Notes: a model not told the origin generated them from the sequence alone. A DNA stretch of 63,458 bases from Raja brachyura (GCA_963514005.1 CAUPSL010001045.1:1-63458), one strand, 5' to 3'; counted from the stretch's first letter, positions 7,101 to 55,035 are shown. Numbers and translations are program-made.

Positions 7101-7119
7101 CATAGGTAGATCGGCATGT

Positions 7120-8829
7120 CATAGAAACATAGAAACATAGAAAATAGGTGCAGGAGTAGGCCATTCGGCCCTTCGAGCCTGCACCGCCATTCAATGTGAT
7201 CATGGCTGATCATCCAACTCAGTATCCCGTACCTGCCTTCTCTCCATACCCCCTGATCCCTTTAGCCACAAGTGCCACATCTAACGCCCTCTTAAATATA
7301 GCCAATGAACTGGCCTCAACTACCTTCTGTGGCAGAGAATTCCACAGACTCACCACTCTCTGTGTAAAGAATGTTTTCCTCATTTCGGTCCTAAAGGAAT
7401 TCCCCCTTATCCTTAGACTGTGACCCCTTGTTCTGGACTCCCCCAACATCGGGAACAATCTTCCAGCATCTAGCTTGTCCAACCCCTTAAGAATTTTGTA
7501 GGTTTCTATAAGATCCCCCCTCAATCTTCTAAATTCCATCGAGTACAAACCGAGTCTATCCAATCTTTCCTCATATGAAAGTCCTGACATCCCAGGAATC
7601 AGTCTGGTGAATCTTCTCTGTACCCCCTCTATGGCAAGGATGTCTTTCCTCAGATTTGGAGACCAAAACTGTACGCAGTACTCCAGGTGTGGCCTCACCA
7701 AAACCCTGTACAACTGCAGTAGAACCTCCCTGCTCCTATACTCAAATCCTTTCGCTATGAATGCTAACATACCATTTGCTTTCTTCACTGCCTGCTGCAC
7801 CTGCATGCCTACTTTCAATGACTGGTGTACCATGACACCCAGGTCTCGTTGCAGCTCCCCCTTACCTAATCTGCCACCATTCAGATAATAGTCTACCCTC
7901 ATGTTTTTGCCACCAAAGTGGATAACCTCACATTTATCCACATTGTACTGCATCTGCCATGCATCTGCCCATTCACTCAGCCTATCCAAATCACCCTGCA
8001 GCCTCCAAGCATCCTCCTCACACCTAACTATACCCCCCAGCTTGGTATCATCTGCAAATTTGGAGATGTTGCATTGAATTCCCTCGTCCAAATCATTAAT
8101 ATATATTGTAAATAGCTGGGGTCCCAGCACTGAGCCTTGCGGCACCCCACTAGTCACTGCCTGCCATTCTGAAAAGGACCCGTTTACTCCTACCCTTTGC
8201 CTCCTGTCTGCTAGCCAGTTCTCTATCCACATCAATACTGAACCCCCAATACCGTGTGCTTTAAGTTTGTATGCTAATCTCTTATGCGGGACCTTGTCGA
8301 AAGCCTTCTGAAAGTCTAGATATAACACATCCACTGGTTCTCCCTTATCCACTCTACTAGTTACATCCTCGAAACATTCTATCAGATTTGTCAGACATGA
8401 TTTACCTTTCGTAAATCCATGCTGACTTTGTCCAATGATTTCACCACTTTCCAAATGCGCTGCTATCCCATCTTTAATAACTGACTCTAGCAGTTTCCCC
8501 ACTACCGATGTTAGACTAACTGGTCTGTAATTCCCCGCTTTCTCTCTCCCTCCTTTTTTAAAAAGTGGGGTTACATTAGCTACCCTCCAATCCTCAGGAA
8601 CTACTCCAGAATCTAAGGAATTTTGAAAAATTATCACTAATGCATCCACTATTTCTGTGGCTACCTCCTTGAGTACTCTGGGATGCAGACTATCTGGCCC
8701 TGGGGATTTATCGGCCTTCAATCCGTTCAATTTACCCAACACCACCTCCCGGCTAACCTGGATTTCACTCAGTTCCTCCATCTTATTTGACCCCCGTTCC
8801 ACTGCTATTTCCGGCAGATTATTTATGTC
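7120..8829 (-). mobile_element. CR1 LINE, 5'-truncated, RT frame intact (ORF 7219-8844)
   Basis: KSPGPD, NYRPVSLTS, YLDFQKAFD, GVPQGSVLGP, FADD motifs; (ATAGAAAC)n tail at ~7121-7141. Confidence 0.95.
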
Positions 8830-11460: not shown

Positions 11461-12145
11461 TATGTACCACTTTGATGCACTCTCTCTCTAGTTACCATTT
11501 TCCCCTTGGCCGCAGACTTATACTCCGACGTTATATCTTTCAAGGAACACGGTACGCGTGTTCAACTCGGTGCAGAGACTGAAATCGAGATTTATCCCTC
11601 GGAAAAAATAGCCGCCAAACGACTAATAGTTTATCGGATCATCTACTCGGTGCAGTTTGGAACAACGACAAGTAATTTTGACATAATAAATGTAGGCCTC
11701 TGAGAGGCCTTGACATGATGGGTATTAAACGAAACACACAACGGGTTGCTGGCTAATTCAGTTCGAAAAAATGCTTCAGAATACGAATTGAGTGACTGAG
11801 ATTTAAATGGAATTTATCCTTGCAAACATATCTGAATACACCGTACCTCCTACCCAGAAATTAGTGATGCTCATTTATCAAGTACAAATATGGCTGGGCG
11901 AACATGTTTTTTGGACAATAGGGAAATGAAGAGTAATGTAATCAGGTATGAAATGATCAAGTTCTGAAACTGTGCACCACGGAACATACGAATAACTTAT
12001 TACCCTCCGTTATCAGAACTCTGAACAATCCTTCCACAGCTGAGGTACTGTACACTTTGCCTCTATCGTCATTCCTTCATCATCCTTGAAAAAATTAGCG
12101 ATGCAGTAGTGCTGGTTTCCGACGGGTAAATGGCGGCTTTGGACT

Positions 12146-12752
12146 CTGTCTCACAACAGACTCTGACCCATTGTGGCATTGGGCGCTGTCTCACAGCAGC
12201 CTCTGACCCATTGTGGCATTGGGCTTTGTCTCACAGCAGCCTCTAACCCATTGTGGCATTGGGCTTTGTCTCACAGCCTCTAACCCATTGTGGCATTGGG
12301 CTTTGTCTCACAGCAGCCTCTAACCCACTGTGGCATTGGGCGTTGTCTCACAGCAGTCTCTAACCCATTGTGGCATTAGGCGTTGTCTCACAGCAGCCTC
12401 TAACCCATTGTGACTTTGGGCTTTGTCTCACAGTAGCCTCTAACCGATTGTGCCATTGGGCGCTGTCTCACAAAAGTCTCTAACTCATTGTGGCATTGGG
12501 CGTTGTCTCACAGCAGCCTCTAACCCATTGTGACATTGGGCGCTGTCTCACAGCAGCCTCTAACCCATTGTGACTTTGGGCTTTGTCTCACGGTAGCCTC
12601 TAACCGATTGTGGCATTGGGCGCTGTCTCACAAAAGTCTCTAACTCATTGTGGCATTGGGCGTTGTCTCACAGCAGCCTCTAACCCATTGTGACATTGGG
12701 CGCTGTCTCACAGCAGCCTCTAACCCATTGTGACTTTGGGCTTTGTCTCACA
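12146..12752. repeat. 40-bp minisatellite, ~15 copies
   Basis: Unit TGTCTCACAGCAGCCTCTAACCCATTGTGGCATTGGGCGC. Confidence 0.95.
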
Positions 12753-13997
12753 AACTGGTGAGCAACGATGCGATACAACGGTGAAAACTGTGTTCTGCAC
12801 TCTGTATCGTCCACTTTGCTTTATCTATTTACATACTCATTGACCATCGGCCCAGCTTTCCCCAACCGACAAATGTGACCCATCTACTTGAGGGGGCGCT
12901 GTGCTGCACGGCTGCCAGTCCTGCAGTCCGTTTCTTTTCACGTTAAGTGTGTACTTGAGGGTATAATCTTTTTATCTGTGGATTTGGGGTGGGGGGGAGG
13001 GTGAAACTGCTTTTAAACAGATAACCATATAACCATATAACAATTACAGCACGGAAACAGGCCATCTCGGCCCTTCAAGTCCGTGCCGAACAACTTTTTT
13101 CCCTTAGTCCCACCTGCCTGCACTCATACCATAACCCTCCATACCCTTCTCATCCATATGCCTATCCAATTGATTTTTAAATGATACCAACGAACCTGCC
13201 GCCACCACTTCCACTGGAAGCTCATTCCACACCGCTACCACTCTCTGAGTAAAGAAGTCCCCCCTCATGTTACCCTTAAACCACTGTCCCTTAATTCTAC
13301 AGTCATGTCCTCTTGTTTGAATCTTCCCTATTCTCAAAGGGAAAAACTTGTCCACATCAAATCTGTCTATCCCTCTAATCATTTTAAAGACCTCTATCAA
13401 CTCCCCCCTGAACCTTCTGCGCTCCAGAGAATAAAGAACTTACTTATTCAACCAGTCTCTATAACGCAGCTGTTGAAACCCAGGAAACATTCTAGTAAAT
13501 CGCCTCTGTACCCTCTCTATTTTGTTGACATCCTTCCTATAATTGGGCGACCAAAATTGTACACCATACTCCAGATTTGGTCTGACCAATGCCTTGTACA
13601 ATTTTAACATTACATCCCAGCTTCTATACACAATGCTCTGATTTATAAAGGCTAGCATAACAAAAGCTTTCTTTACCACCCTATCTATATGAGATTCCAC
13701 CTTCAAGGAACTATGCACGGTTATTCCCAGATCCCTCTGTTCAACTGTGTTCTTCAATTCCCTACCGTTTACCATGTACGTCCTATTTTAATTTGTCCTG
13801 CCAAGGTGTAGCACCTCACATTTATCAGCATTAAACTCCATCTGCCATCTTTCAGCCCGTTTTTCCAACTGGCCTAAATCACTCTGTAGACTTTGGAAAT
13901 CCTCTTCATTATCCACAACACCCCCTATCTTGGTATCATCTGCATACTTACTAATCCAATTTACCACCCCTTCATCCAGATCATTGATGTACATGAC

Positions 13998-16900
13998 ATA
14001 GAAACATAGAAACATAGAAAATAGGTGCAGGAGTAGGCCATTCGGCCCTTCGAGCCTGCACCGCCATTCAATGTGATCATGGCTGATCATCCAACTCAGT
14101 ATCCCGTACCTGCCTTCTCTCCATACCCCCTGATCCCTTTAGCCACAAGTGCCACATCTAACGCCCTCTTAAATATAGCCAATGAACTGGCCTCAACTAC
14201 CTTCTGTGGCAGAGAATTCCAGAGACTCACGACTCTCTGTTTAAAGAATGTTTTCCTCATTTCGGTCCTAAAGGAATCCCCCCTTATCCTTGGACTGTGA
14301 ACCCTTGTTCTGGACTCCCCCAACATCGGGAACAATCTAGCTTGTCCAACCCCTTAAGAATTTTGTAAGTTTCTATAAGATCCCCCCTCAATCTTCTAAA
14401 TTCCAGCGAGTACAAGCCGAGTCTATCCAATCTTTCCTCATATGAAAGTCCTGACATCCCAGGAATCAGTCTGGTGAATCTTCTCTGTACCCCCTCTATG
14501 GCAAGGATGTATTTCCTCAGATTTGGAGACCAAAACTGTACGCAATACTCCAGGTGTGGCCTCACCAAAACCCTGTACAACTGCAGTAGAACCTCCCTGG
14601 TCCTATACTCAAATCCTTTCGCTATGAATGCTAACATACCATTTACTTTTTGTTCACTGCCTGCTGCACCTGCATGCCTACTTTCAATGACTGGTGTAGC
14701 ATGACACCCAGGTCGCGTTGCATCTCCCCCTTTCCTAATCTGCCACCATTCAGATAATAGTCTACCCTCATGTTTTTGCCACCAAAGTGGATAACCTCAC
14801 ATTTATCCACATTATACTGCATCTGCCATGCATCTGCCCATTCACTCAGCCTATCCAAATCACCCTGCAGCCTCGAAGCACCCTCCTCACACCTAACTAT
14901 ACCCCCCAGCTTGGTATCATCTGCAAATTTGAAGATGTTGCATTGAATTCCCTCGTCCAAATCATTAATATATATTGTAAATAGCTGGGGTCCCAGCACT
15001 GAGCCTTGCGGCACCCCACTAGTCACTGCCTGCCATTCTGAAAAGGACCCGTTTACTCCTACCCTTTGCCTCCTGTCTGCTAGCCAGTTCTCTATCCACA
15101 TCAATACTGAACCCCCAATACCGTGTGCTTTAAGTTTGTATGCTAATCTATTATGCGGGACCTTGCCGAAAGCCTTCTGAAAGTCTAGATATAACACATC
15201 CACTGGTTCTCCCTTATCCACTCTACTAGTTACATCCTCAAAAAATTCTATCAGATTTGTCAGACATGATTTACCTTTCGTAAAACCATGCTGACTTAGT
15301 CCAATGATTTCACCACTTTCCAAATGCGCTGCTATCCCATCTTTAATAACTGACTCTAGCAGTTTCCCCACTACCGATGTTAGACTAACTGGTCTGTAAT
15401 TCCCCGCTTTCTCTCTCCCTCCTTTTTTAAAAAGTGGGGTTACATTAGCTACCCTCCCATCCTCAGGTACTACTCCAGAATCTAAGGAATTTTGAAAAAT
15501 TATCACTAATGCATCCACTATTTCTGTGGCTACCTCCTTGAGTACTCTGGGATGCAGACTATCTGGCCCTGGGGATTTATCGGCCCTCAATCCGTGCAAT
15601 TTACCCAACACCACCTCCCGGCTAACCTGGATTTCACTCAGTTCCTCCATCTTATTTGACCCCCGTTCCACTGCTATTTCCGGCAGATTATTTATGTCTT
15701 CCTTAGTGAAGACAGAACCAAAGTAGTTATTCAATTGGTCTGCCATGTCCTTGTTCCCCATGATCAATTCACCTGTTTCTGACTGCAAGGGACCAACATT
15801 TGTTTTAACTAGTCTCTTTCTCTTCACATATCTATAAAAACTTTTGCAGTCAGTTTTTATGTTCCCTGCCAGTTTCCTTTCATAATCTATTTTCCCTTTC
15901 CTAATTAAGTCCTTTGTCCTCCTCTGCTGCATTCTGAATTTCTCCCAGTCCTCCGGTAGGCTGCTTTTTCTGGCAAATTTGTGTGCCTCATCTTTTGTTT
16001 TTTATACTATCCCTGATTTCCCTTGTTATCCATGGATGCACCACCTTCCCCGATTTATTCTTTTGCCAAACTGGTATGAACAACTTTTGTACTTCATCCA
16101 TGCAGTCTTTAAATACCTTCCATTGCACATCCACTGTCAACCCTTTAAGAATCACCTGCCAGTCTATCTTGGCCAAATCACATCTCATACCTTCAAAGTT
16201 ACCTTTGTTCAAGTTCAGAACCCTTGTTTCTGACTTAATTTTGTCACTCTCCATCCTAATGCAGAACTCAACCATATTATGGTCACTCTTGCCCAAGGGG
16301 CCACGCACAACAAGACTGCTAACTAACCCTTCCTCATTACTCAATACCCAGTCTAGAATAGCCTGCTCTCTCGTTGGTTCCTCCACATGTTGGTTGAGAA
16401 AACTGTCCCGCATACATTCCAGGAAATCCTCTTCCTCAGCACCCCTGCCAATTTGATTCACCCAATCTACATGCAGATTGAAGTCACCCATTATAACCGT
16501 GTTACCCTTGTTGCACGCATTTCTAATTTCCTGTTTGATGCCATCCCCAACTCCAATACTACTGTTAGGTGGCCTGTACACAGCTCCCACTAGCGTTTTC
16601 TGCCCCTTAGAGTTTCGCAGCTCTACCCATATCGATTCCACATCCTCCACGCTAATGTCCTTCCTTTCTATTGCATTAATCTCCTCTCTCATCAGCAACG
16701 CTACCCCACCTCCTTTTCCTTTTCGTCTATCCCTCCTGAATATTGAATATCCCTGGATGTTCAGCTCCCAGCCTTGGTCATCCTGGAGCCATGTCTCCGT
16801 GATCCCAACAATAGCATAGTCATTAATCGCTATCTGCACCTTCAACTCATCCACCTTATTACGAATGCTCCTCGCATTGAGACACAAAGCCTTCAGGCTT

Positions 16901-18002
16901 GTTTTTACAACACTCTTACTCCTTATACAATTATGTTGACAAGTGGCCCCTTTCACATCGATCCCTATTACACTTGGCCATACTCTCCTATCCCTTTGTG
17001 AGCTTTCTTTCCCGTTAATTCTGGGGTCATTAACCATCCCTTTACTCTCTTTCCCTGTAACTCCGTTCTCGATTATCCCATTTGACACCCCACCCCCCTT
17101 ATTCAGTTTAAAACCATCCGTGTAGCAGTGGCAAACCTGCCGGCCAGAATGCTGGTCCCCCACCTGTTAAGATGCAATCCGTCCCTTTTGTACAGTTCCC
17201 CCTTACTCCAAAACAGATCCCAGTGATCTAAGAATCTAAATCCCTGCCTCCTGCACCTGTTCCTCAGCCACACATTCAGGTCCCGTATCTCCCTGTTCCT
17301 GCTCTCGCCAGCACGAGGAACTGGAAGCAAACCGGAGATAACAACCCTGGAAGTCCTGCTTTTCAGCATTTTTCCAAGCTCTCTGAAGTCCCGCTGCAAA
17401 ATATTCATCCCCTTCTTTCCAACATCATTTGTGCCAACATGCACGACCACTTCCGGCTGTTCACCTTCGCCCTTGAGGATTGTCTGCACTCTGTCCGTTA
17501 CATCCTGCATCCTGGCACCAGGAAGGCAGCACACCATTCTGGAATCCCGTCTGTTGCCGCAAAAACCCCTGTCCGTACCTCTCACAATGGAGTCTCCAAC
17601 TACAATGGCGTTGCCCGACTTTGGCCTCTTTGGGTTTGGCTCATCAGCCCTTTTTGTTTGGCAAGCCAGTCCGCCGCTCAGTGAGATACCGTCTTCTGTC
17701 CCGGCAGCTTCCACGTGGGTGAACCTGTTCACAACAGGTACAACACCCGGGGACCTTTGCATTCCATGTTTTCCTCCCTTTCTCACCGTCACCCACCTTC
17801 TCTCTTCTAGTGCCTTTGGTGTAACAACCTTACTGAAGGACTTGTCGAGGAACGACTCAGTTTCTCGGATGAACCTGAGGTCATCCACTTGTTTCTCCAG
17901 TTCCCCAACACGGTCCTTCAGGAGCTGTACCTGGATGCACTTCTCACATTTGTAGCATCCAGAGGCACCAGCAGTGTCCTTGACCTCCCACATACTGCAA
18001 GC
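13998..18002 (-). mobile_element. Nested CR1 (inner element): ORF1 17993-17103, ORF2 ~17100-14096 with a few lesions, no 5'UTR
   Basis: ORF1 CEKC plus GDS..HVGTND..DGLH SGNH esterase; APE endonuclease in ORF 15988-17163; RT in ORF 14643-15932; (ATAGAAAC)n tail; nearly identical to 7120-8829. Confidence 0.95.
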
Positions 18003-21000
18003 AACAACAAAGGACCAAGCACAGATCCCTGAGGAACCCCACTAGTCACCTGCCCCCAACCCGACAAACAGCCATCCACCATTACGCTCTGGCTTCTCCC
18101 ATTCAGCCACTGTTGAATCCATCTTGCTATTCCTGCATTTATACCCAACAGTTAAACCTTCTTAACCAACCTTCCATGAGGAACCTTGTCAAAGGCCTTA
18201 CTGAAGTCCATATAGACAACATCCACTGCTTTACCCTCGTCAATTTCCCTAGTAACATCTTCAAAAAATTCAAGAAGATTAGTCAAACATGACTTTCCAG
18301 GCATAAATCCATGTTGACTGTTCCTAATTAGACCCTCTTTATACAGACACTTATATATATTATCTCCATGTATCTTTTCCATTAATTTGCCCACCACTGA
18401 AGTCAAACTAACCGGTCTATAATTGCTTGGTTTACTATTAGAACCCTTTTTAAACAATGGAACAGCATGCGCAGTACGCCAATCCTCGGGGACTATTCCC
18501 GTTTCTAATGACATTTGAAATATTTCTGTCATAGCCCCGGCTATTTCTACACTAACTTCCCTCAATGTCCCAGGGAATATCCAATCGAGACCTGGAGACT
18601 TATCCACTTTTATATTTTTCAAAAGTGTCAGTACTTCTTTTAATTGAAACTCATAGTATCCATAGCTACTCTACTAGTTTCCCTTACCTCACATAATTCA
18701 ATATCCTTCTCCTTGGTGAATACCGAAGAAAATAAATTGTTCAATATCTCCCCCATCTCTTTTGGCTCTGCAGATAGCTGTCCACTCGGTCTCTCCAATG
18801 GACCAATTTTATCCCTTGTTATCCTTTTGTTATTAATATAGCTGTAGAACCCCTTTGGATTTACTTTCACCTTACTTGCCAAAGCAACCTCATATCTTCT
18901 TTTAGCTTTTCTAATTTCTTTCTTAAGATTCTTTATACATTCCTTATACTCCTCAAGCACCTCATTTACTTCATGCTGCCTATAATTAATGTAGATCTCC
19001 CTCTTTTTCCGAACAAGATGTCCAATTTCCCTTGAAAACGAGGGCTCTTTCCAATTTTTACTGGTTCCTTTCAACCGAACAGGAACATAAAGATTCTGTA
19101 CACTTAAAATTTCCCCTTTAAATGTCCTCCATTTCTCCTCTACATCTTTCCCATAAAAGAAAATATCCCAGTTCACTCCTTTTAAATCATCTCGCATCTC
19201 GTTAAAGTTAGCCTTTCTCCAATTAAACATCTCAACCCTAGGCCCAGTTCTGTCCTTCTCCATAATTATATTGAAACTAATGGTATTGTGATCACTGGAC
19301 CCGAAGTGCTCCCCAACGCATACCACCGCCACCTGTCCGGTCTCATTTCCTAACAGGAGGTCCAGCACTGCCCCTCCTCTAGTAGGCACCTCTCTGTATT
19401 GCTGCGAAAAACTATCCTGCACACATTTTACAAACTCCAAACCATCCAGCCCATTTACAGAATGTGTTTCCCAGTCTATGTGTGGAAATTTGAAATCTCC
19501 CACAATCACTACCTTGTGCTTACTACTAATATCTGCTATCTCTTTACATATTTGCTCTTCCAATTCCCGTTCCCCATTTGGCGGTCTATAATATACCCCT
19601 ATAAGTGTTGCTACACCTTTCCCACTTCTCAGTTCCACTCAAATAGCCTCCCTAAATGAGCCCTGAAATCTATCCTGCCAAAGCACTGCTGTAATATCTT
19701 CCCTGACTCGCAATGCAGCACCTCCACCTCTTGCCACTATCACACCTGAAGCAACGAAATCCTGGAATATTTAGTTTCCAATTAGAGCCCTCCTGCAACC
19801 CTGTTTCACTGATTGCCACAACATCATACTTCCAGGTGTCTATCCAGACTCTAAGCTCGTCCACCTTTCTTAGAATGCTCCTAGCATTAAAATATGCACA
19901 TTTAAGAAACCCGCCATCCCTTATTCTCTGTTTATTTCCTTTTTCTTCTTTCTCCTCTTGTGTCCGAGTGCTTCCCTTTTCTGCTTCCTGCCTCCCATTC
20001 TGTCTACTTGCTTTTGCTATTTGCATCCCTCGCCCCAACCATTCTAGTTTAAAGTCTCCCCAGTGGCCTTTGCAAATTTCCCCGCCAGGATATTGGTCCC
20101 CCTCCGGTTCAAGTGCAACCCATCCTTTCTGTACAGGTCCCACCTACCCCAAAAGCAGTCCCAATGATCCAGAAACTTGAATCCCTGTCCTCTGCACCAG
20201 TCTTTCAGCCAAGCATTTATCCTCCACCTTGCTCCATTTCTACTCTCACTGTCGCGTGGCACAGGCAGTAATCCTGAGATTGTTACCTTTTTGGTCCTTT
20301 TCCTCAACTCTCCTCCCAAGTCCTTAAATCCTCCCTTCAGGACCTCTTCCCTTTTTTTACTTATGTCACTGGTACCTATATGTACCACTACCTCAGGCTC
20401 CTCTCCCTCTGATTTGAGGATATCTTGGACACGTTTAGACACGTCAGAGACCTTGGCACCAGGGAGGCTGACCACCATCCTGGTCTCCCGATTGCGTCCA
20501 CACAATCGCCTATCCGACCCCCTAACTATAGAGTCCCCAATTACTATTGCCCTCCCCCTTTTTTCCCTACCTTTCGGAGCAACAGGGCCGGTCTCTGTTC
20601 TGAAGGCCCGTCCGCTGTCGCTACCCCCGGGTACTCCCATCACCCCCATCCGTACTCAAACAGGAGTACTTATTTGCCAGGTGTACTGACATTGGAGTAC
20701 TCACTCGTTCATGCCTCAGCCCCTTGCCCTTCCTTAACGTGACCCACATGTCTCTCTCCTGTGGGTTTGGAGTGACCACCTCCCTATAACTCTCCTCTAT
20801 CACCTCTTCACTCTCCCTAACCAGGCAGAGGTCATCGAGCTGCTGCTCCAGGATCCTAATACGGTCCCTTAGGTGCCCCATCTCTCTGCACATGATGCAG
20901 ATGTGGACGTCAAGAGGGCCATCCGACACCATGACCTCCCACATCTGACATGCAGTACAGTACACTGCTCTGGCTGATATTCTATCGCCTTACCCTGGAT

Positions 21001-21109
21001 CCGATACCAGTATAATATAATGGAAACTGCTGTGAGAAATCATCAGGTATCTGACTCAAACAGCAGCTCCCTCTTGACCTTTAAACTACAACTTTATTTT
21101 GCAAACCAA

Positions 21110-21240
21110 AAGCACTGTACCTTTGCTAACCCACTGTAGCTTTACTAACCCACTGTACCTTTACTAAAGCACTGTACCTTTACTAAAGCACTGTACCCTT
21201 ACTAAAACATTGTACCTTTACTCACCCACTGTACCGTTAA
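21110..21240. repeat. 19-bp tandem repeat in CR1 5'UTR
   Basis: (ACTAAAGCACTGTACCTTT)n, ~6-7 copies. Confidence 0.85.
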
Positions 21241-21366
21241 CCAAAAAGCAGAAATACTAACCAGAGGTTCCACCCAATCAGCTGCTTCCTCTAGTCTGCT
21301 TCCACCAATCAGCGGCTTCCACCAGAAACCTCCCTATTCACTGTGGAATGTTCCGGATTTAGGTAA

Positions 21367-21565
21367 GCCCCTGACCCTCCCCCACTCGCACCAACGGTCC
21401 CGGGCCTCTGTAAAAACAAGCCCCGCGCTGGATTTATGTATTCACCGCCCCTGACCCTCCTCCACTCGCACCAACGGTCCCGGGCCTCTGTAAAAACAAG
21501 CCCCGCGCTGGATTTATGTACTCACCGCCCCTGACCCTCCTCCACTCGCACCAAAGGTCCCGGAA
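21367..21565 (-). repeat. 80-bp tandem monomers (~2.5 copies) at the CR1 5' end
   Basis: gcccctgaccctcc..cgcaccaacggtcccgggcctctgtaaaaacaagccccgcgctggatttatgta.tcacc repeated with period 80. Confidence 0.9.
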
Positions 21566-22130
21566 CTCTCAATTCTCCTGCATCTGAAATACAAAGGGAA
21601 GATATAATATACACAGATGACAGAAGACATCGGCGGAGAATGTGGACATTTGTAATGTCAGAAGTTAATTATCTCATCAAAACTCCGATATTATGAGGAG
21701 TTGCGATGAGGGATTTCGTGAAGAACCCGCCAGCACGCATGCGCGACATCTCTTCAATGCAGCGGTGTGGAATCACAGAACCAACAAACCAAATAAATGT
21801 CTTGGTATAGTAAGATTGAAGAGACTCGAGTTACCAGTTGACTTTATGATCGAGGGTTGGGAGCGTAGGGCACGAAATCCCTCATCGCAACTCCTCATAA
21901 AATAAAGATCAAACCTCAAACTGGTAAGTTCTCGTTTAATCTTACTATTTCATTTCGGAGTCACGTGAGTGACTTCGTGAAGACTTCAAAGCTCTGTGAT
22001 TACACGCCCTGGACAACGTCCATGCTATCACACACGCCACGATAAGGATGGACAGGAGTAATCAAAATTTTCAGACTGCTTGTTCTGAAAAATAATAATA
22101 TTTATTAATAATAACAAAAGAAAACCCCCC

Positions 22131-23120
22131 TCACTGGGGAGTAATTGAATGTTCTCGGCCTGCATTCAGTACAGCTTCTGCGAACATTCCAGGAGCGGTA
22201 ATAGGTTTATTATAAAACCGCTGAAAAGTGGCTTCACTGGCCCATCCCGCTGTGGCTAGTATATGGTCCGTGGGCACCTCCATGACCTTTGCCGCCGACG
22301 TTGATGCAGCCCTGGTGGAATGGGATTTAAATACATTAGTATCTATACCTGCTTCGTTCAAAACGATCCTGAGCCATCTGGAGATTGTCTGTACCGTCAC
22401 TCTATGGTGAGGTCTCTTGTGGCTGATTATCAAGTATTGCTCCATTCCCCTTAATTTCCACGTCACTTTAATATAGTGGCGGATATGGGTGGCTAAACAT
22501 AGCCTGGCATCAGCGGGGTATGCTGGAAACACCAGCTGCAACCCTGTGAATCCAGGCCTGTGCTGTTTAAGCAATTAATCAATAAAGAAAATGACTTTTT
22601 CTGGGGTAGAGATCATTCTATCAATCTTGATCTTGTGAAGAGTCTGTACCCTTTGTGCCGAAGTAAGTGCCAATAACATCACCAACTTCAGGGTGAGTTT
22701 GTCCAATTCAAGCCCCATCATGGGCGACCACGTCCTGAGCAGGGTCAGTACCTTCCCAATATCCCAGGTGACGTTGTAACGAGGTCTGGGCGGATTGGAA
22801 TTAAATATTCCCCGCATAAGTTTGGACACCAGTTTATTGGATCCTACCTCCATATTGAGGTAGGATGATAGTGCGCTCCTGGCGCTATTGATGGCACTGT
22901 AGCTGAGGTGTTCGTCATGATGTAACCCCGCAAGGAACTCCAGCACATCTGTGATTGAAACGGAGTCATATGCAATGTCCAAGCGGCCCCAGTAGGTTTC
23001 CCATTTTCTGATGTGCGATAAATATTGCCGTCTTGTGGACTCCCTGCATGATGCTCCCATGGTATCCATGGTCCTTGATGAGAGACCATACTGCAGTAAT
23101 GGTCTGTTCAAATCCTGCAA
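22131..23120 (-). pseudogene. DIRS tyrosine recombinase (one in-frame stop at 22575-22577)
   Basis: LLALTSAQRVQTL (catalytic R), SHSTRAAS (HxxR), AGW..TFQRFY (W, Y). Confidence 0.9.
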
Positions 23121-23480
23121 GCCAATAAATTCAAATGACTATGGCAGGGATGTGGTTCCCCTGTAACAGGGTTCATCACCAATTGTGGGTAACCCTCTAA
23201 GAGGACCCATGGTTGACTGATCATACCAAGGACCACCGGATACCATGACTGAGTAGGCCAGTCGGGTATGATAAGAATGCCATAAGCAGCATATAGCTGG
23301 ATTTTCCCCAATACCCGACTGATGAGGCAAAATGGAGGAAATGCATTTCCCCCAGTCTAGCGAGAAAGCGTCCATCGCCATTGCCCCAGGATCTGGCTCC
23401 CATGAGACATATGTTGGTACCTGATGGTTTAACCGTGACGCAAAAAAGGTCAATATCCGGCTTACCAAATGTGGCTGTAA
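23108..23480 (-). pseudogene. DIRS DNA N6-adenine methyltransferase-like domain, frameshifted
   Basis: FGKPDIDLF/ASRLNHQ..DAFSLDW..ILIIPDWPTQSWYP assembled across frames. Confidence 0.75.
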
Positions 23481-25000
23481 TTTGTTCGAATATTTGGGAA
23501 TTCAACATCCACTCGATGTTGTCATTAAATTTCCGTGACCTGGTGTCCGCCACTGTGTTGAGCTTACCTGGTGAATAGGTAGCTGAAATCCAAATATTCC
23601 TTTGTATACACCAGAGCCAAATTGTATTAGCCAATTCATCACATGAAATTGACCTGGTACCGCCCATATGATTTAGATATGCCACCGCAGTGGTGTTGTC
23701 TATTTGGAGACGGACATAAGCTCTGAGTCCGTGGAATGCCCCAAGCATCTCCAAATAATTTATCCCTTGTGCTAACAAAAGGGTAGATTCTAGTGAGTCC
23801 CATCTGCCCCCACAACTGGTGTTGTTGTCCGTAGCTCCCCAGCCATGGGAGCTTGCGTCTGTTTGTAAGTATACCACCGGACGAGGCACAATGATGGGTT
23901 TAAATGAGTTATGGATATTGTCAATCCACCATTGTAACTCAATTTTTGACTTGAGTGGCAACTGCATAGGTCTATCAAAATGTCCAGCATTCAATTTTAA
24001 CGCTGAAATCTTGGATCTTTGTAAATTTTGATAATGTAAAGGTCCGAATTGAGCAGCTGGAAAAAACTGCTACGATTTTCCCAATTACCTTAGCAGTTTG
24101 TCTGATTGATGGTATACTGGCGCAGACCAGGTTCTTGCATGTTTGAATGACATCCCCAACTTTGTTAATTGGTATGGTGGCAATCATGTGATTGCAATCT
24201 ATCGTGAACCCCAGATAGTCCATGGTCTGTGAAGGACAGAACTTTGATTTATCTGGATGGATAATAAACCCCATTTTTTGGAATATTTCCACAGTGGCTG
24301 AAACTGCCAATTTTGCTGATTCCAATGTATGCCCAATAATTAGGATATCATCTAGATAAGCCATGACCGTGTGATTTGCCATCCTCAGTGTAGCTAACAC
24401 TGGCTTGAGTAATTTGGTAAACAGTCTAGGGGCTGTGGTAAGCCCATTGGGCAAAGCCTTATATTGCCAAAGTTGATCCATCCAGATGAATTTCAAGAAC
24501 TTCCTGTGATGTTTCTGAACGGATACTGAATAGTATGCATCTTTCAGATCAATGCATGCCATGAAGCAGCCCTCAGAAATCAAAGATTTGGCTGTTTCAA
24601 ACGTGTCCATTTTGAAATGAGTATATTTTACAAAGGTATTCAAATGGGTTAGGTCTATAATGACCCTACATCCTCCATCTTTTTTGGTTTTAGTAAATAT
24701 ATTGGATACAAATTCAATCGGTTCATGTGTAGTTCTTTCTATCACACCTTTCTCTTGTAGTCTCAATATTTCAACATAGCCTACTGCTGTTTCCTTCCTG
24801 GAAAGTGCAAATCTGCGATTTGGCATATGCTGAGGTGGAGGAATTTGGCCATTTATGAATTCAATCTCATAGCCCTGAATACTTAGTAAAATAAACTCAT
24901 CTGAGGTGAGGGTTTCCCATGCCTCCTTAAACCCCCGTAGTCTACCCCCAACATGTGAGGTTAGACATGCCAGTGCATGAAAACCAGACCGCCTTACCTT
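23480..25000 (-). pseudogene. DIRS reverse transcriptase / RNase H, frameshifted
   Basis: IDLKDAYY, LPNGL..APR.FTK, YLDD; RNase H TDAS..GWG, INYLE, DNTTAVAY, N.VAD..SR. Confidence 0.9.
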
Positions 25001-25005
25001 CATGG

Positions 25006-26769
25006 TTATCGGTGGTCCCTGACATGTTTGGTGGGACGTGGAGGTGCTGGGTTGCGCTGGTGATATGGAAACCGCATTTTCCATGCTGGCCGTTGAGGGC
25101 CTAGCCCTAAAAAAGGCCTGGGCTGTTGAGGCTGTTGGTACATAGGAGGCGCCGGAACGTAGGTCCTAGCTGTCCTTTCGGTTTGACCTCGTGGCCTGAA
25201 AAAAGGTGTTTTCTTGGCCGGCTGTCTGGTCACGGTGTGTGACCTCATCAGACCCACTGTTTTGGCATGGTCATCTAAATCTTTGACCTGCTTCGGGAGG
25301 TCTTCTCCGAATAGTTGTCTGGGTGGGGATGTAGGAGGTGCTCTACATAACCCCGCAAATTTGGGGTTTAATGTAGGCTTAATGATGCTTTTCCTAAAAG
25401 CATTGATTTCATATTGCGTGTTGCAAAGTAGAGCCAGGGCATCCTCCTGTTCGGTGTTCAAATCCACTCCATCCACCGACCTTGCAAACGCGGTAATCCC
25501 AGATGTAAGTAACTTCAGGATTCTCTGTAATTTTACTTCCTGAGTTCGAATGCCCGGGCTGATATTGCCCCAAATTGGCATGTTGACAATAGGCACATTG
25601 AGCGAATTGCAATTGCCCGGCGCCTTGTGTCTATCCATGGCCTTTGCAAGGACCTCCTCCTGTAGCTGATGGTTTGTGAGGAAATCTATGGTAGCAGCCA
25701 GCTTGGTATTGAGGGGTTGTCCCGATGATATGGGTAATCCAAACGTGGCTGTCACGTCCAGGAGCTCTTCCTGTGGAACCTCAGGTGCAACTGGGGCATG
25801 TACCAAGTTTCCTCCTCTTCTGGCCTCATGCTACCCATAGATGATGGGGACATGTTCATAAGTCCCCTGGAACTGTGAGCTTCCTGTCTTTGATTGAGCA
25901 GGATTTGTTCCATGATCCTCTCCATCCGATCTATGCGCCCTTCATCGTGCGTGAATGGGCGGATAGAGTCCTCATGCCCGAAGGAACTTCTGAGGCTCCT
26001 ATCATCGGCCCGTACCTCGTCGAGGTAATATCGGTGCCGTGACGATAAGTCGCTACCAGCCGCCTCAGCGAAACTGAACGACTCCCGCGCGGATCTGCTC
26101 ATATGCATTCTTTTGGCTGAGCTGCATCCGGCTGCCTCTGAGGGCATATATGCGGTGAGAGCTCGGCACCTAACGCCTCAGCGTGGTGACCCGACATCCG
26201 CGCGGGCTTGCCGACTGTCCTTTTCCTGGACCCAGACGGCGTACGGTCCCGTCCAGCCTCCAGCGGGGGAAGCGGTGACCGTGGCGAGACTCCACCTGTG
26301 TGACTCCTCCTAGTCCAACTAGGTGGTGAGTCTCCACTGGCCCTTCTTGGTCTGCCAGTGGACTCAGATCTCGCTGATACACCAGGCCGTAATCTTACGG
26401 CTCCTGGTGAAACCTCTGCCCGAAAAGGGCTAGGTTGTCGAGCTCTATCCCTGGCTCCACTATGAGGGCTCAGGGAGAAGGGCCGTGCAGCAGCACGTAA
26501 ACCCTCTTTGCACGCCTCTGCCAACGATCCTGTTGGCGATAATGAAATGGAGTCAGGGTCCACCTGCTCCGGCGCTATGCCGACTTCTTGCTCTGCGGGA
26601 ACCCCGTAGAGCTCAGCTGTGCCGGTGATTCGGGTCCTGTGACTACAGGGCTCCCCGATTTGCGCGCCTTTTTCCCGGCCCTTCCAGCGGGTGCTGTAGA
26701 AGGGAGCTCCGGGATGGGTGGCCGGCAGGTCCTTCCGGATGTCCTGCGGCCCTTGCTCCTTTTGTCCAT
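25006..26769 (-). pseudogene. DIRS gag-like ORF1, broken into several frames
   Basis: Lies upstream of and overlaps the RT; PGNC..LNVP.VN..IW and LFGEDL motifs in 25006-25806; probable start at ATG 26769. Confidence 0.7.
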
Positions 26770-29099
26770 GGTCTCTGTAGGGAAGAAAATACAGAAACAG
26801 AAAAAACAACCAGCTCAAGGTTGATTATACTTACCTGAGGTGGTCCTTATGAACGGCTGGTGGTGAGCCGCGCTCCTCCTCCAGCCGTCGACTGCAAATG
26901 CGAGCGACGATATATCGCGCATGCGTGCTGGCGGGTTCTTCACGAAGTCACTCACGTGACTCCGAAATGAAATAGCGCAACAATGCTGATCAGTGTATTC
27001 TGCTCTCTCTATTTTCCACTTTGCTCTATCTATTGGCATGTCACACAATGCAGGAACATGTCCTTCAGCCGAATCTGCCAACGCCGATCAATGTAGACCA
27101 TTCACATAAGCCCCAACTGCCGTTTTTAGCGTGTGTCAGTTATTATATTAGTTTGGCCAAATGTATTATAGATCATGTTTAGTTTCTACTCAGCTACCTC
27201 CTTTGACAGCTATTGCTATATGCCAGCCATCCTCTGTGCGAATCTATAAAGCAACCACACTCTGAGCGTATCCATATAACCAGTGGCTTGTATCATTGCG
27301 TTTGAACCGAAAATATCTATATATGGCATATGTAATCTGTTTAGATAGCATGCAGAACAATGTTTTTTCACTGTTCATCGGTACATGTGCCATTAATATC
27401 CCTAATCCTGAAGCTAAATCCTAAAGCGACGGTCCTCTCCATTGTTTACAACTCCATGAAAGCAGCGGAATGTCTCATTGGTTGCAGAAACATTGCATCA
27501 TCCATTTTGTGGATGCAATAAGTAAAATGGACGGGAGAGCCAGTGGATGTAGTGTACCTGGACTTTCAGGAAACATTTGTTAAGGTCTCACACAGGAGAT
27601 TAGTGGCCACAATTATAGCACATGGTATTGGGGTTGGGTATTGACATGGATAGAAAAAAGGACCGCAGCTATTTACAATATATACTAGACTAAGTGGGAC
27701 CCGTTGGGTCCCAGCTTCAATCGGGAGGGCTGGTCCCCCAACGCAATATTTTACCTCTCCACCAATTCCAATATTGCTGGCCAGTGGGGACGGGCTTTCT
27801 GGAGCGCTAGCATGGTTGTTGTGGGCTGAAAGGATTGGTTTCCAGAGGGCTAGTATGGACATTGTTGGCAGAATTGGTTCCTGGGCTAGCAGCTCAGTCA
27901 CTGAGGCCAGCCAGATCAGTAACTGCGGCCTGGCAGTTCAGTCACTCGGCCATGGCAGGCTGGCAGCTCAGTCACTCAGGCCTGGCGGACTGGCAGCTGA
28001 GAAACTGCAAGACATTCTGCCGAAAACAGGTGACAGATACTGTGGGAGAGAAGGGAAGAGGGTGGACAATTTATTTTTGACATTTTCATTTTTTACAGAT
28101 CACAGCAATGAAGGAGGTAAATGTATTCTTGCGCGGATGTTTGGAGCGCTAGAATGTGTGTTGTGCACTGAAGGGACTGCTTTCCAGTGGGCTAGTATGA
28201 ACATTGTGGACTGACTGGATTCTTGGACTTGCAGTTCAGCGAGTCGGCTGGTGGGCTGGCAGTTCACTAAGTCACGGCTGGTGGGCTGCCACTTCAGTCA
28301 CTTACACGTGGTGGGCTGACAGTTCACTTACTCATGGCTGGTGGGCTGGCAGTTCACTAAGTCACGGCTGGTTGGCTGGCAATTCAGTCACTTACAGCTG
28401 GTGGGCTGTCAGTTCACGCAGCCTCTACTCCTTCATTCACCCACCCCCACTTTGCTCCTTGCCATTTCCCCCTCCCCCACGCATTCAGTCCACCTTTTCT
28501 CAACCCCCCCCCCCCCCCCCCATGCACTCTTAGTGGCGTTCCGACAGCGCAGCTATTCCTGCGTATTAGGTTCCCATTGTGACTAAGAACATGCAGGCAT
28601 GGCAAGTGCGAAAAAGGATTTATTATATGTTAAAATGTGAATGACTTAAAATATATCAACAATTTAACTGATGATATGTATTAAGTTATTTCTTGTTGTG
28701 TTCTGCCTCTTGATGTCTCTTTGTTGTTGATATAAAATAATACAATTTTAATATAGTGAGATTGAGCGGTCAACTTTTAACAAAGAAATCTGATAATTTA
28801 CCTCAAAAGTCATCATTCAGTGGAGGCCTGCAAACAATCTCACAGCACTTGAAGCGGAGTGCAGACCGTAAATCCAACCTAACAGCACTCCAAGCAGAGT
28901 GCAGGCATCAAGTCCAATCTTACAGCGCTCCAAGCAGACTGCAGGTAGCAAGTCCAACCTCACAACACTCCAAGCAAAGAGCAGGCAGCAAGTCCGAATT
29001 CACAGCACTCCATGCAGAATGCAGGCAGCAAGTCCTACCTCACAGCACTCCAAGCAGAGTCAGGCCAGCAAATCTAATTTCACAGCATTTCAAGCAGAG

Positions 29100-29680: not shown

Positions 29681-29904
29681 CACAGAAGATATATATGGTA
29701 GTAAACTTTTTGAATACTCAAACGGCAGACCGCAGCGTCTCCACTCTGGCATTTCGTAGTCAGCAACACTTCCGCAATCAACACGACCTGTGCACTCACC
29801 GGCAATTACGCAATCAGCGTGACTTGCCCACTAGGAGGAATTCACGAAATGAGCGGGACGTTTGCAGTAAACGCTCGGACCTAATAAAGCGTTTATTCCT
29901 CCCA

Positions 29905-30060
29905 GCCGCAGTTGCCAACGCCACAGTTACGAAAGCCACAGTTGCAAAAGCCAGAGTTGCAAAAGCCACAGTTGAAAAAACCATAGTTACAAAAGCCAGA
30001 GTTGCAAAAGCCACAGTTGCAAAAGCCACAGTTGCAAAAATCACAGCTGCAAAAGCGACA
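29905..30060. repeat. 15-bp tandem repeat (GTTGCAAAAGCCACA)n, ~10 copies
   Basis: Direct inspection. Confidence 0.9.
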
Positions 30061-31992
30061 GGCCTCAGTGAATGATCTGTCAGCCCAACAAACCATTCGG
30101 CCCACGATGTCCATACTAGCCTTCTGAAAACCAGTCCCTTCGGACCACAACGCCCATACTAGCTCTCCACAAATCACCCCCTTCCCACTGGCCAGCAATA
30201 TTGGAATTGGTGGAGAGGTGGAATATTGCGTTGGGGACCAGCCCTCCCGTGTGTAGCTGGGCTCCTACCGTCTCATTAAATGACATTGATTTATTCGAGC
30301 CCACTCGCATGCAGTTCCCTTGCCGTCCACCTGATGTCCCCCTCATTGAAAATCTGTAAATTGCACAACACCCGATAATTATTGGATAAGGGCTTCATTA
30401 TTTGAAGACACAAGAACAGAACTTCGAGCAGCTCAAATGATTCAAAGGACCTTTACTGTCATATGTACCCATTAAGGTGCAATGATATGTGAATTGTCAT
30501 ACAGCCATACAAAACAAAGGCAACAAGACACACAATTACATAAACCTTAACGTAAACATCCACCACAGCGGATTCCGCACATATCTCACTGTGAAAGAAG
30601 GCAAACAATTCCAAACTTCTTCCTCTTCATATACACGCGGCGGGTCAGTCAAACCATCCACAGTCGGGACGATCAAAGCCCCGCAACCGACGATCGAAGC
30701 CCCCGTCGGGGTGATCATAACTCCCGCGTCGGGGCGGTTGAAACTCCCTCCGCGGCATGGAGCTCCCGAGTCGGCCTCTTCTTACCAGAGACAGCGGGCT
30801 CGACGATTTTAAAGCCCACAGATCCCGAGTTTGGTGCTTCGATCCCCGGCAAAGGCATCGCAAATTCCGCGATGTTAAAGTCCCGCAGACCCCTGCGGCT
30901 TGGACCGCCGGATCGGTCTCATGGAAAGGCCACCAACTCCACGATGTTAGGGCACAGTGCGGACGAAGATTCGATACGGAAAAAAATGCATCTCCGTCGA
31001 AGTAAGAGATTAAAACAAAATTTATACAACGCCCCCCCCCCTCACAATCCCACATAAAACAAACCAAGGAACACTAAAACATTTTTTTTGACACATTGAA
31101 AATAACAAAAAAAGAAGAAATAACAGACAGACTGTTGGCGAGGCAGCCACTACTGATGCCGAGGTCAGTTCGCGGACAATATTGAAAGTAAACACAATCT
31201 CGAACTTTACTGTATGCGTTTAGCAATGTGTACATGTCTGCGCAAAAGGATTGGGTGCTTCGCTTCTCCAAACTCCGAGACCGAGGTACATTTTCCACCT
31301 CTTCCACCGAATGCTCGATTTCAGCACTAACAGTCCTCAGTCAGAGATTACACATTACACCTCCTCAAGAATAACACCAGAGCCCTGCATGTATTTGTTT
31401 TCAGTCCGCTACAATACCTCATTTACACTCGCCACCGTGCGGCCAAACACGGCTCTTATTGTATCTACGAGTTGCAGATGATACAAATGGGATTGGTCAA
31501 ATAATGTGCAACGTGGAGACGGAGTAGAAGACGAAGATAGTGAATTTAGTGATATGGTGTCAGGATAATAACCTCACTTTCCATGTCAGGAAGTTGAAGA
31601 GGTAGTTATTGACTTCATGAAACATGGTGGAGTACAAACCACATCTGCCCCAATGGTATGGAATTGAAAATGGTCGCGAGTTGAAATTGCATGGTGTTAC
31701 ATTACCAATGATCTGTCGCAGGGTAATCACATTGATGCGACTTCAAAGAAGGCACATCAACATCTCTACTTCAGGAGGAGTCTGAGGAAATGTGGCTTGT
31801 CACCAGTGACTCTGACAAGCTTCTCGGGGAGCATATTATAGGGTTGCACCACAGATTGGAGTGGTGACAGGTCTGCCACGACCACGAGAAATTGCAGTAA
31901 TAAATATTGCCAAATTCATCACACAGACCAGACTTCGCACCATTGACTCCATCTACACGTCACGCTGCCTCGGAATGAAAACAACCAACGTC

Positions 31993-32513: not shown

Positions 32514-34615
32514 ATACAAAGTAATTCGGGAGTAAGATATGTCAGGGGAGATTGGCCTCATGGTTTGCTCAGCTTGCAACATGTGGGAGATCAGGGATAT
32601 TGTCGGTGTCCATGGTGACCACATTTGCAGGAAGTGTGTCCAGCTGCAGCTCCTGGCAGACCGCATTGAACGATTGGAGCTGCGGCTGGATTCATACTGG
32701 AGCATCCACGATGCAGAGAAAGTCGTGGATAACACATACAGCGAGTTGGTCACGCCACAGGTAAAAGGTAACAGGCCAGAAAGGGAGCGGGCAGCCAATA
32801 GCCAGCAAAGCAGTCTGCAGGTACTGCAGGAGTCCCCTGCAGTCGTCTCCCTACTAAACAGGTTTACCATTTTGGATACTGTTGAGGGAGATGGCTTATC
32901 AGGGGAAGGCAGCAGCAGCCAAGTTCGTGGCACCATGGGTGGCTCTACAGCACATGATTGGGGAAAAAAGAGGGGAAGGGCAATAGTAATAGTGGATTCC
33001 ATTCAGGGGAATAGATAGGCGTTTCTGCGGCCGCAAACGAGACTCCAGGATGGTATGTTGCCTCACTGGTGCAAAGGTCAGCGATGTCACTGAACGGCTG
33101 CAGAACATTCTGGAGAGGGAGGGTGAACAGCCAGTTGTCGTGGTGCATATTGGCACCAACGATATAGGTTAAAAAAAAGGGATGAGGTCCTACAAGGTGA
33201 ATTTAGGGAGCTAGGAGATAAACTTAAAACTAGGACCTCAAAGGTAATAATCTCTGTATCACCACGGGCCAGTCAGAGTAGAAATAGGAAGATATTGCAG
33301 ATGAATACGTGGCTTGAAAAATGGTGCAAGGGGGAGGGATTCAATTTTTTAGGGCACTGGAACCCTTTCTGGGGGAAGTTGGACCACTACAAACAGGACG
33401 GTCTGCACCTGGGCTGGAATGGAACCAATGTCCTTAGGGGAGTGTTTGCTAGCGCTCTCGGCGAGGATTTAAACTAATGTGACAGGGGGATGGGTACAAG
33501 AGCAGAGAGGCGGGTGGGTGTAAAGCGAGGCAGGAAGCAATAGGGAGCAAGGTGAAATGTAAAAGTGGCAGGAACAATGGCAGGCAGTGACTAGTGGGGT
33601 ACCGCAAGGCTCAGTGCTGGGACCCCAGCTATTAACAATATACATTAATGATCTGGATGAGGGAATTGAAGGTAATATCTCCAAGCTTGCGGATGACACT
33701 AAGCTGGGGGGCAGTGTTAGCTGTGAGGGGGATGCTAGGAGACTGCAAGGTGACTTGGATAGGCTGGGTGAGTGGGCAACTGCTTGGCAGATGCAGTATA
33801 ATGTGGATAAATGTGAGGTTATCCACTTTGGTGGCAAAAATAGGAAAACAGATTATTATCTAAATGGAGGCCGATTAGGAAAAGGGGAGATGCAGCGCTA
33901 CCTGGGTGTCACGGTACACCAGTCATTGAAAGTAGGCATGCAGGTGCAGCAGGCAGTGAAGAAAGCAAATTGTATGTTAGCTTTCATAGCAAACGGATTT
34001 GAGTATAGGAGCAGGGAGGTTCTACTTCAGTTGTATAGGGTCTTGGTGAGACCACATCTGGAATATTGCGTACAGTTCTGGTCTCGAAATCTGAGGAAGG
34101 ACATTATTGCCATAGAGGGAGTGCAGAGAAGGTTCACCAGACTGATTCCTGGGATGTCAGGACTGTCTTATGAACAAAGACTGCATAGAATCGGTTTATA
34201 CTCTCTGGAATTTAGGAGATTGAGAGGCGATCTTATAGAAACTTACAAAATTATTAAAGGGTTAGACAGGCTAGATGCAGGAAGATTGTTCCGGATGTTG
34301 GGGAGGTCCAGGACAAGGGGTCACAGATTAAGGATAAGGGGGAACTCTTTTAGGACCGTGATGAGAAGGACTTTTTTCACACAGAGAGTGGTGGGTCTCT
34401 GGAACTCTGCCACAGAGGCTAGTTGAGGCCAGTTCATTGGCTATATTTAAGAGGGATTTAGATGTGGCCCTTGTGGCTAAGGGGATCAGAGGGTATGGAG
34501 AGAAGGCAGGTACGGGATACTGAGTTGGATGATCAGCCATGATCATATTGAATGGCGGTGCATGCTCGAAGGGCCGAATAGCCTACTCCTGCATCTAATT
34601 TCTATGTTTCTATGT
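31993..34615 (+). mobile_element. CR1 with 5'UTR and ORF1 (32539-33477, disrupted) joined directly to the 3' half of RT (33575-34523)
   Basis: CSAC..CRKC zinc finger and esterase remnants; abrupt jump to WQAVTSGVPQGSVLGP; TTTCTATG tail. Confidence 0.9.
32275..32511. repeat. 16-bp tandem repeat (AAGGATTCTGGGAGCT)n and (TA)n microsatellite in CR1 5'UTR
   Basis: ~7 copies at 32275-32380; (TA)n at ~32448-32511. Confidence 0.9.
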
Positions 34616-53700: not shown

Positions 53701-55035
53701 CTTCTGGTCACGCATGCCAGTTACTAAAATGTCTCTGGTGAGATGGTCTGTCATGTAACCAAAACGTCACCGCTGGGCGAGATAACGCAAATCAGCGATA
53801 AAACATTCAACAGGTTCCTCCGGCAACTGTTTCCTTGAAAAGAACAGTGCCCTCTCCAGAATGCGGTTCGAGGGCAGGTCACAAATCTCCCTGAACTTAC
53901 GTAGCCGGCAAGCGGGGTCACTGTCAGATTCTGCAGGAGTAGTCACCACGTTGTTATCGTCCTGGACCGCTGGAACGCAGGTGGACGTTCTGGCTGTCTT
54001 CATGGCATCAGGTCCGACAAGGTTGAGTAGGAGGGAGGCTTTAAGGGAGTCAGGATCGGCTCGGAGTGCGACGTTGACAAAGTGGGTGAAATCAACTTCA
54101 AACGTGGCTCAGCGCTCAGAGATGTTAGCATCAAACACAAGCTGCGCGGGCTTTCTGCAAGAGGACGCCGTGGTCAGAGAGATTAAGCACAAATACGCAC
54201 AAATCAAAATAAATAAATAAAACACGATAGACAGGAGACGCAGGTATCTTCCAGCTTCGACATCATGTAAATAAGCATTTCACAAACTCTTAAGAAACAT
54301 AGAAACATAGAAACATAGAAAATAGGTGCAGGAGTAGGCCATTCGGCCCTTCGAGCCTGCACCGCCATTCAATGTGATCATGGCTGATCATCCAACTCAG
54401 TATCCCATACCTGCCTTCTCTCCATACCCCTGATCCCTTTAGCCACAAGTGCCACATCTAACGCCCTCTTAAATATAGCCAATGAACTGGCCTCAACTAC
54501 CTTCTGTGGCAGAGAATTCCAGAGACTCACCACTCTCTGTGTAAAGAATGTTTTCCTCATTTCGGTCCTAAAGGAATTCCCCCTTATCCTTAGACTGTGA
54601 CCCCTTGTTCTGGACTCCCCCAACATCGGGAACAATCTTCCAGCATCTAGCTTGTCCAACCCATTAAGAATTTTGTAAGTTTCTTTAAGATCCCCCCTCA
54701 ATCTTCTAAATTCGAGCGAGTACAAGCCGAGTCTATCCAATCTTTCCTCATATGAAAGTCCTGACATCCCAGGAATCAGTCTGGTGAATCTTCTCTGTAC
54801 CCCATCTATGGCAAGGATGTCTTTCCTCAGATTTGGAGACCAAAACTGTACCCAATTAAAGTGTGCAACATCTTTTAATGATAGCACAGGGTATTACACA
54901 TATTATCAAGCACTGGCTACATTCTTCTACTGAACTGTATCCAGGGAGGGGAATGCGTTATGATTGATGTTAACTAGGCGGGATTAATGGTACTGCGATA
55001 GCTATACTATTGGCTGCATATATAAACCATCTACA
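50766..55035 (-). mobile_element. Ty3/Gypsy LTR retrotransposon, decayed, RT domain deleted
   Basis: LTRs 50766-50969 and 54266-55035 (the latter split by a CR1); TSD ATACT at 50761-50765/55036-55040; PPT 50970-50980; gag, protease LDTGA (~53150), RNase H ETDHQPL, integrase VDSYS..TDNG..SNGLAER. Confidence 0.92.
54294..54855 (-). mobile_element. CR1 3' fragment inserted in the Gypsy 5' LTR
   Basis: (ATAGAAAC)n tail; LTR sequence ctcttaa|...|ttaaagtgtgc resumes after it. Confidence 0.9.

Follow-up and report, generated by a model that had tools for sequence, protein, structure and literature searches.

A predicted leader intron and gag-end splice donor in a DIRS-like retrotransposon from Raja brachyura

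Described systems and the element in the window

Introns have been noted in some tyrosine-recombinase (YR) retrotransposons, a precedent that would lower the novelty of another case. The DIRS1-like elements described in PMC3266345 and PMC9210276 are about 5.3 kb long and possess ITRs, an ICR complementary to both termini, and genes in the order gag - RT/RH - MT - YR, and in almost all of them the two halves of the ICR overlap by a 3-nt circle junction. Neither "intron" nor "splic" is present in the main texts of these two papers, and the searched text of PMC3783388, PMC4157794, PMC6681497, PMC8547959, PMC9341512, PMC5718144 and PMC6431247 contains nothing relevant on introns or splicing. Native DIRS splicing is not described in the titles and abstract openings of the literature that we searched, and the searched portions of the DIRS papers do not address how three overlapping ORFs are translated from one promoter.

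According to the account in PMC8557442, Penelope and Chlamys elements keep an intron in their 5'-UTR; in Penelope and Chlamys-3_cRei it is short (75 bp in Penelope), adjacent to the promoter and kept after retrotransposition. We propose the like for the element studied here. Penelope and Chlamys belong to an unrelated class and differ in having a single ORF with a GIY-YIG endonuclease and in that their splicing has been shown, whereas that of our element is predicted and its donor may serve further ORFs. Ty1/copia elements splice a subgenomic gag RNA, and in Arabidopsis EVD a donor near the end of gag sets structural versus catalytic output while the unspliced RNA is the genome, as PMC5580714 reports; these are likenesses to our element, but EVD is an LTR element with a DDE integrase and one ORF whose splicing is tied to early termination, whereas the donor discussed below is predicted to supply a separate recombinase ORF with its start codon. 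The statement in the earlier note on this DNA that retroelements normally lose introns is thus too strong, given the Penelope, Chlamys and Ty1/copia cases (PMC8557442, PMC5580714). In addition, DIRS gag has been co-opted into TMPO (LAP2alpha) and ZNF451, where PMC4495291 infers that the DIRS1-like gag brought its own built-in splice acceptor. The acceptor that we describe ahead of gag would by its description be such a site, although the gag of our element has no Pfam LAP2alpha match.

The window, that is, the whole stretch of 63,458 nt that was analysed, includes on its minus strand a full-length, decayed DIRS-like tyrosine-recombinase retrotransposon with ITR and ICR at 21688-26975. An inverted-repeat search located its left terminus and left ITR, a putative promoter, at 26906-26975 and its right ITR and right terminus at 21688-21755, with ITR arms of 49 nt that are 90% complementary (26906-26954 against 21707-21755). 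The trinucleotide TAT is found at both ends, which may correspond to the DIRS-like pattern of the same trinucleotide without a target-site duplication. The left ICR (21945-21983) is complementary to the left terminus at 39/39 positions and the right ICR (21871-21900) to the right terminus at 30/30, which is a DIRS-like hallmark, and the genes follow one another on one strand in the DIRS-like order gag, RT/RH, MT, YR. The gag ORF (25006-26769) has a conserved start Met and is broken by frame changes in the window copy; the RT / RNase H / methyltransferase region (23108-25084) is frameshifted; and the YR ORF (22131-23114) has one in-frame stop in this copy. Pfam matches within the element are RVT_1 (E 6.7e-23) and Phage_integrase, while the gag, RH and MT pieces gave no Pfam match and were recognized by similarity to relatives (RH and MT by tblastn to loci L002 and L003, see below). 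Rfam gave no match. An AATAAA at 22106-22101 is followed by an acceptor-like site at 22085, both lying ahead of the ICR within the 3' UTR (22085-22106).

In contrast to the canonical DIRS1 arrangement with its 3-nt overlap, a 44-nt hairpin spacer (21901-21944) keeps the ICR halves apart, and they are also split in the distant relative L003, in which the first ~25 nt of the spacer recur. The element is filed as DIRS-like with a non-canonical ICR. Two other identities were set aside: Ngaro or PAT-like elements have split direct repeats, and only inverted repeats are seen at the ends of this element; Penelope-like elements have a GIY-YIG endonuclease and a single ORF, and this element has a tyrosine recombinase and three ORFs. 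The spacer is partly conserved at ~41% RT identity (L003 4150-4200), is repeated imperfectly and in inverted orientation some 100 nt away (21805-21841) and carries a 7-nt word complementary to a donor consensus; its hairpin could be part of the recombination site. A search with the spacer pattern returned L003 again and nine loci without DIRS proteins.

The left ITR also contains the palindromic word TCACGTGA (26959-26952, minus) and a GCGCATGCG-like word (26924-26916, minus), which we take to be an E-box and an NRF1-like site, respectively. The closest named homologues of the element are skate proteins with 54% identity, which, like the neighbouring LINEs, point to a vertebrate host, probably a cartilaginous fish. 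Part of the element is present in 20 of the 22 listed runs (12 organism labels, 13 studies). The window copy is dead, and the splicing scheme proposed below refers to its active ancestors and relatives.

The element is flanked by LINEs with an esterase ORF1. LINE-type copies with an SGNH/GDSL esterase ORF1 and an endonuclease-RT ORF2 lie at 14000-21560 (minus), 7119-8781, 33576-34615, 54297-54944 and 62437-63458, and two ORF1 copies in tandem adjoin the DIRS element. About 100 nt past the 3' end of the latter, an acceptor-like pyrimidine tract and AG are followed by an ATG (21584-21620, minus), a site that could belong to a host exon or to the start of the neighbouring LINE. A long CT-rich low-complexity tract and minisatellites of 40, 30 and 15 nt occupy 529-2900, 12117-12832, 27920-28447 and 29880-30089, and the ORFs over them are likely spurious.

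For comparison we used five loci with DIRS-like proteins of 35-46% identity, obtained from scans of metagenomes (one locus), prokaryote-genome contigs (three) and viral contigs (one). L002, L003 and L005 are animal-type DIRS-like elements inside contigs filed as prokaryote genome bins, most likely eukaryotic contamination. L004 (4715-5974) consists of a DIRS-like gag and RT in a contig of the viral collection, with a possible intron in gag (donor-like site at 4886).

The interval between the left ITR and gag

On the minus strand, a candidate GT-AG intron of 60 nt (26775-26834) sits between the left ITR and the start of gag, with its donor, D1, at 26834 and its acceptor, A1, at 26775; a short first exon at 26835-26905 is suggested by its place between the left ITR and D1. 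The exon ends in CAG at 26835, the interval opens with GTAAGT and closes with CTACAG, and 27 of the 32 bases ahead of the final CAG are pyrimidines. The positions that the earlier note gave for the donor, the 60-nt interval, the pyrimidine tract and the ATG proved exact to the base. In its GT-AG ends, consensus donor and polypyrimidine tract, the interval matches a U2-type intron, and CAGGTAAGT occurs a single time in the 63,458-nt window when both strands are counted.

On the sense strand of the element, D1 is the best of 230 GT sites and A1 the best of 347 AG sites, as ranked with a rough matrix built from approximate splice-site frequencies. They form the sole pair of such strength at a spacing of 50-150 nt in the window, also with the thresholds relaxed by 2 and 4 bits, and looser thresholds (3 and 6 bits) yield five pairs on the minus strand of the window. 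None of 20,000 leaders simulated with a first-order Markov model matched the strength of D1 and A1, and 72 of the 20,000 reached the loosest threshold. D1 and A1 are, on these sequence features, likely real splice sites, and splicing itself is predicted.

The ATG at 26769 stands 5 nt past A1 and has an A at -3 and a G at +4. A full-length gag homologue of 579 aa (P0122) opens at the same Met and shares 32 of 62 residues, and by this homology ATG 26769 is the real gag start. The gag frame opened by it closes after 64 codons because the window copy is broken. This shared Met, together with splice sites beyond the chance expectation, upholds the placement of the interval by the earlier note in the 5' leader ahead of gag. 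There is no ATG in the unspliced leader between the ITR and gag. Splicing of the leader would put a start codon of the ITR (26922) into the gag frame, but this codon is not in frame with the two further acceptors discussed below; it may precede the start of transcription and was not adopted.

The same motifs could in principle have another meaning, namely that of a T-rich promoter or RNA element joined to a chance donor, or of a private change in a dead copy, in either case without splicing. The 60-nt interval does contain a small hairpin with a T run behind it, the matrix is crude, and no RNA junction was seen in the contig runs, none of which is on record as RNA. We nevertheless judge this reading very unlikely, since it has to face the 0/20,000 result, the presence of the interval in contigs of this family from other organisms, the same layout in L002, and an independent donor signal at the end of gag.

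Four listed contigs (runs X11 and X20; organisms L and C) cover the whole D1-A1 interval at ~91-94% identity, with small gaps only. None of the best 15 of 95 joints, all with a depth of at least 77, removes the interval, and the depth inside the intron is 7,536 in run X1; the intronless DNA form thus makes up less than about 1% in run X1 if the joint list is ordered by depth. The intronless genomic copies considered in the earlier note are therefore not seen in these four contigs or among these 15 joints. Four contig runs were compared, none on record as RNA, and a junction at the local depth of run X20 (28) would fall below the listed joints. Run X20, guessed to be RNA, has a depth profile that follows that of the deepest run, X1 (Spearman 0.91), and its depth inside the intron (28.2, two contigs) equals that 20 nt past the intron. 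In all four runs the contig depth at 21782-22145 and 26878-27050, which hold the ICR and the termini, is far above that of the interior; this may reflect many short non-autonomous derivatives or repeats mapped twice.

Conservation of the motifs across DIRS families, also put forward in the earlier note, finds a counterpart in the one relative with a known left terminus, L002 (35-43% amino acid identity), which is hence the only comparison for the leader intron. An 80-nt GT-AG stretch follows directly on its left ITR, with a donor ranked 2/188 and an acceptor ranked 5/264. L002 carries an internal deletion, and the 280 nt after this stretch contain no ATG, so the link between stretch and gag is not established there. 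In L004, a strong acceptor (2/306) that may or may not correspond to A1 precedes the likely gag ATG by 94 nt, with another ATG between them. L002 (4850-8544) keeps both termini, the ICR, RH/MT and YR, and its rank-1 donor, a strong site, lies shortly ahead of the YR stop.

The length of the interval deserves separate treatment. It falls under the 65-nt threshold of the main human class of short introns, as given in PMC4463651, and it contains no consensus branch point, candidate adenosines being found solely at -41 and -16. D1 might consequently be a real donor that rarely joins A1, 60 nt being too short, and that splices to distal pol or recombinase acceptors or docks U1, boosting transcription and blocking early poly(A), with Gag made from unspliced RNA. 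The absence of an ATG from the unspliced leader agrees with such an arrangement, as does Arabidopsis EVD, in which donor-docked U1 blocks premature termination in the account of PMC5580714. However, it leaves unexplained why the best acceptor of the element lies 5 nt before gag, L002 has an acceptor as well as a donor, and the ultra-short class to which a 60-nt intron belongs exists in human, where introns of 56 nt are spliced according to bioRxiv 10.1101/784868. We consider it rather unlikely, and retain the joining of D1 to A1 as the preferred reading.

The gag-end donor and candidate acceptors for pol and recombinase

A second donor, D2, is found with an RT-frame ATG (25003) at 24992-25003 (minus); the intron would start at 24997, in phase 0 of RT. 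D2 ranks 2/230 and is located 8 nt after the gag stop and 6 nt after the RT-frame ATG. Donors of the same kind, in RT phase 0 and soon after the gag stop, are present in all four relatives that cover the place (L001, rank 3/92; L003, 1/240; L004, 2/195; L005, 6/255), L002 being without the region, and the chance of such a donor was 0.005-0.03 in each of the three relatives for which it was computed.

A protein trace of a phase-0 donor would be the pattern [QKE]V[ST]. From 150 RT homologues taken from 50% clusters, 125 were anchored, and 81 offered a leader of 30 residues or more; in the RT leader, which is unconserved, 23 of these 81 carry the pattern, against 6.9 +/- 2.4 expected and a maximum of 15 in 2,000 shuffles, and in the RT core, used as a control, 5 were observed against 5.1 expected. 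The exact pattern was narrowed from a wider one after inspection of the list, and all four patterns beat every shuffle. The D2 signal is in our view the best-supported sign that splicing may matter across DIRS-like elements. A third strong donor at 23567 (rank 3), in conserved RNase H codons, is treated as a candidate coding by-product.

In a DIRS-like subgroup (P0127, P0128, P0130, P0289 and P0291), gag and pol form one continuous frame of 845-1,180 aa. The three proteins examined at full length, P0127, P0128 and P0130, have the word E-V-S at the gag-pol boundary.

The acceptors are less uniform. A candidate pol acceptor, A2, at 25107 lies within the gag F-L-G codons, and the first ATG after it, at 25084, is in the RT frame (25084-25107, minus); the site is weak (rank 31/347). 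The gag tail contains the top-ranked acceptor of the locus in both L001 and L005, and there the next ATG is an RT-frame one (L005 site at 879). L003 contradicts this route to pol, the first ATG past its F-L site being in the gag frame. A candidate recombinase acceptor, A3, whose AG ends at 23115 (23115-23139, minus), is in phase 0 of the YR frame and ranks 4/347, and D2 is in frame with it at the start of the recombinase in the window element. L002, L003 and L005 lack a strong phase-0 A3, the best acceptors around this place being in phase 1. The idea of the earlier note that splicing also serves RT and YR has thus gained a second, conserved donor at the end of gag, while its acceptors, A2 and A3, are inconsistent among relatives.

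The recombinase could also start without D2, at the first in-frame YR ATG (23069), which lies 46 nt past A3 and behind an out-of-frame ATG in good context (23089). Among 120 YR homologues, 54 were anchored at the A3 position and 23 of these have Q there, for which the codons of the overlapping MT frame are a possible explanation; 18 of 47 have a Met of their own at this place. A search for a spliced RT-leader/YR protein found none, the one match among four candidates being an unspliced RT.

These data bear on another, copia-like use of D2: it would give rise to a Gag-recombinase RNA or to one for gag only, the leader intron would be constitutive, and RT would be reached by frameshift or re-initiation instead of A2. 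The E-V-S word at the boundary of the one-frame proteins points in that direction, as do the weakness of A2 in the window element and the lack of an RT-frame ATG ahead of D2 in L003 and L004 (in L004 the RT frame has no ATG until 6382). On the other hand, D2 comes after the gag stop in the window element, L001 and L005, and 6-9 nt before D2 these have an RT-frame ATG, a position that suits the donation of a start codon, and we find this use of D2 distinctly unlikely.

A proposed splicing scheme and its meaning

With slightly better than even confidence, we regard the 60-nt stretch as a real, slowly spliced leader intron and as the first step of a scheme by which Gag, RT and recombinase would be expressed from one promoter, with unspliced RNA as the replication template. 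Transcription would begin where the left ITR ends, which gives a short first exon. Joining of D1 to A1 would then produce the gag mRNA; joining of D1 to the gag-tail acceptor A2 would make an RT-frame ATG the first one and so yield the pol mRNA; and joining of D2 to A3 would cut out RT/RH/MT and bring the recombinase in frame behind the RT-frame start codon.

We propose that the leader intron survives because only the unspliced full-length RNA would be efficiently packaged and reverse-transcribed. A short intron with a weak branch point would leave a pool of unspliced RNA, and the spliceosome may face competition from packaging factors at the 5' end. An experimental parallel for such partial retention is offered by Dictyostelium DIRS-1, in which, as PMC7192593 reports, an intron engineered into the region from the left repeat to ORF1 remained partly unspliced in cDNA, unlike the same cassette placed near the 3' end. 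Early poly(A) at 22106 could possibly bar spliced RNA from replication; no counterpart of this signal was seen in L002, where the ICR comes directly after the YR stop. A hairpin that hides A1 in the predicted fold of the window copy was also considered as a retention mechanism and rejected, as the window copy is not matched at 26794 by any of the contigs that cover this position in three runs.

Extended to the class, the scheme would have animal DIRS elements generally express Gag, Pol and recombinase in the manner of a complex retrovirus, with a short leader exon, alternative acceptors, a conserved gag-end donor giving the recombinase its start codon, and an unspliced RNA genome; this generalization is tentative, and we lean somewhat against it. 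The exact donor and acceptor positions make the predictions testable in existing RNA-seq of sharks, rays, amphibians and fish. If they are true, one more vertebrate retrotransposon would join the few that keep introns, and retrotransposition reporters based on an intron at the 5' end may mislead in the DIRS class. An acceptor built in before gag would likewise account for the two captures of DIRS gag by mammalian genes, in LAP2alpha and ZNF451, each time as an alternative last exon, and A1 gives a concrete candidate for where the inferred LAP2alpha acceptor came from.
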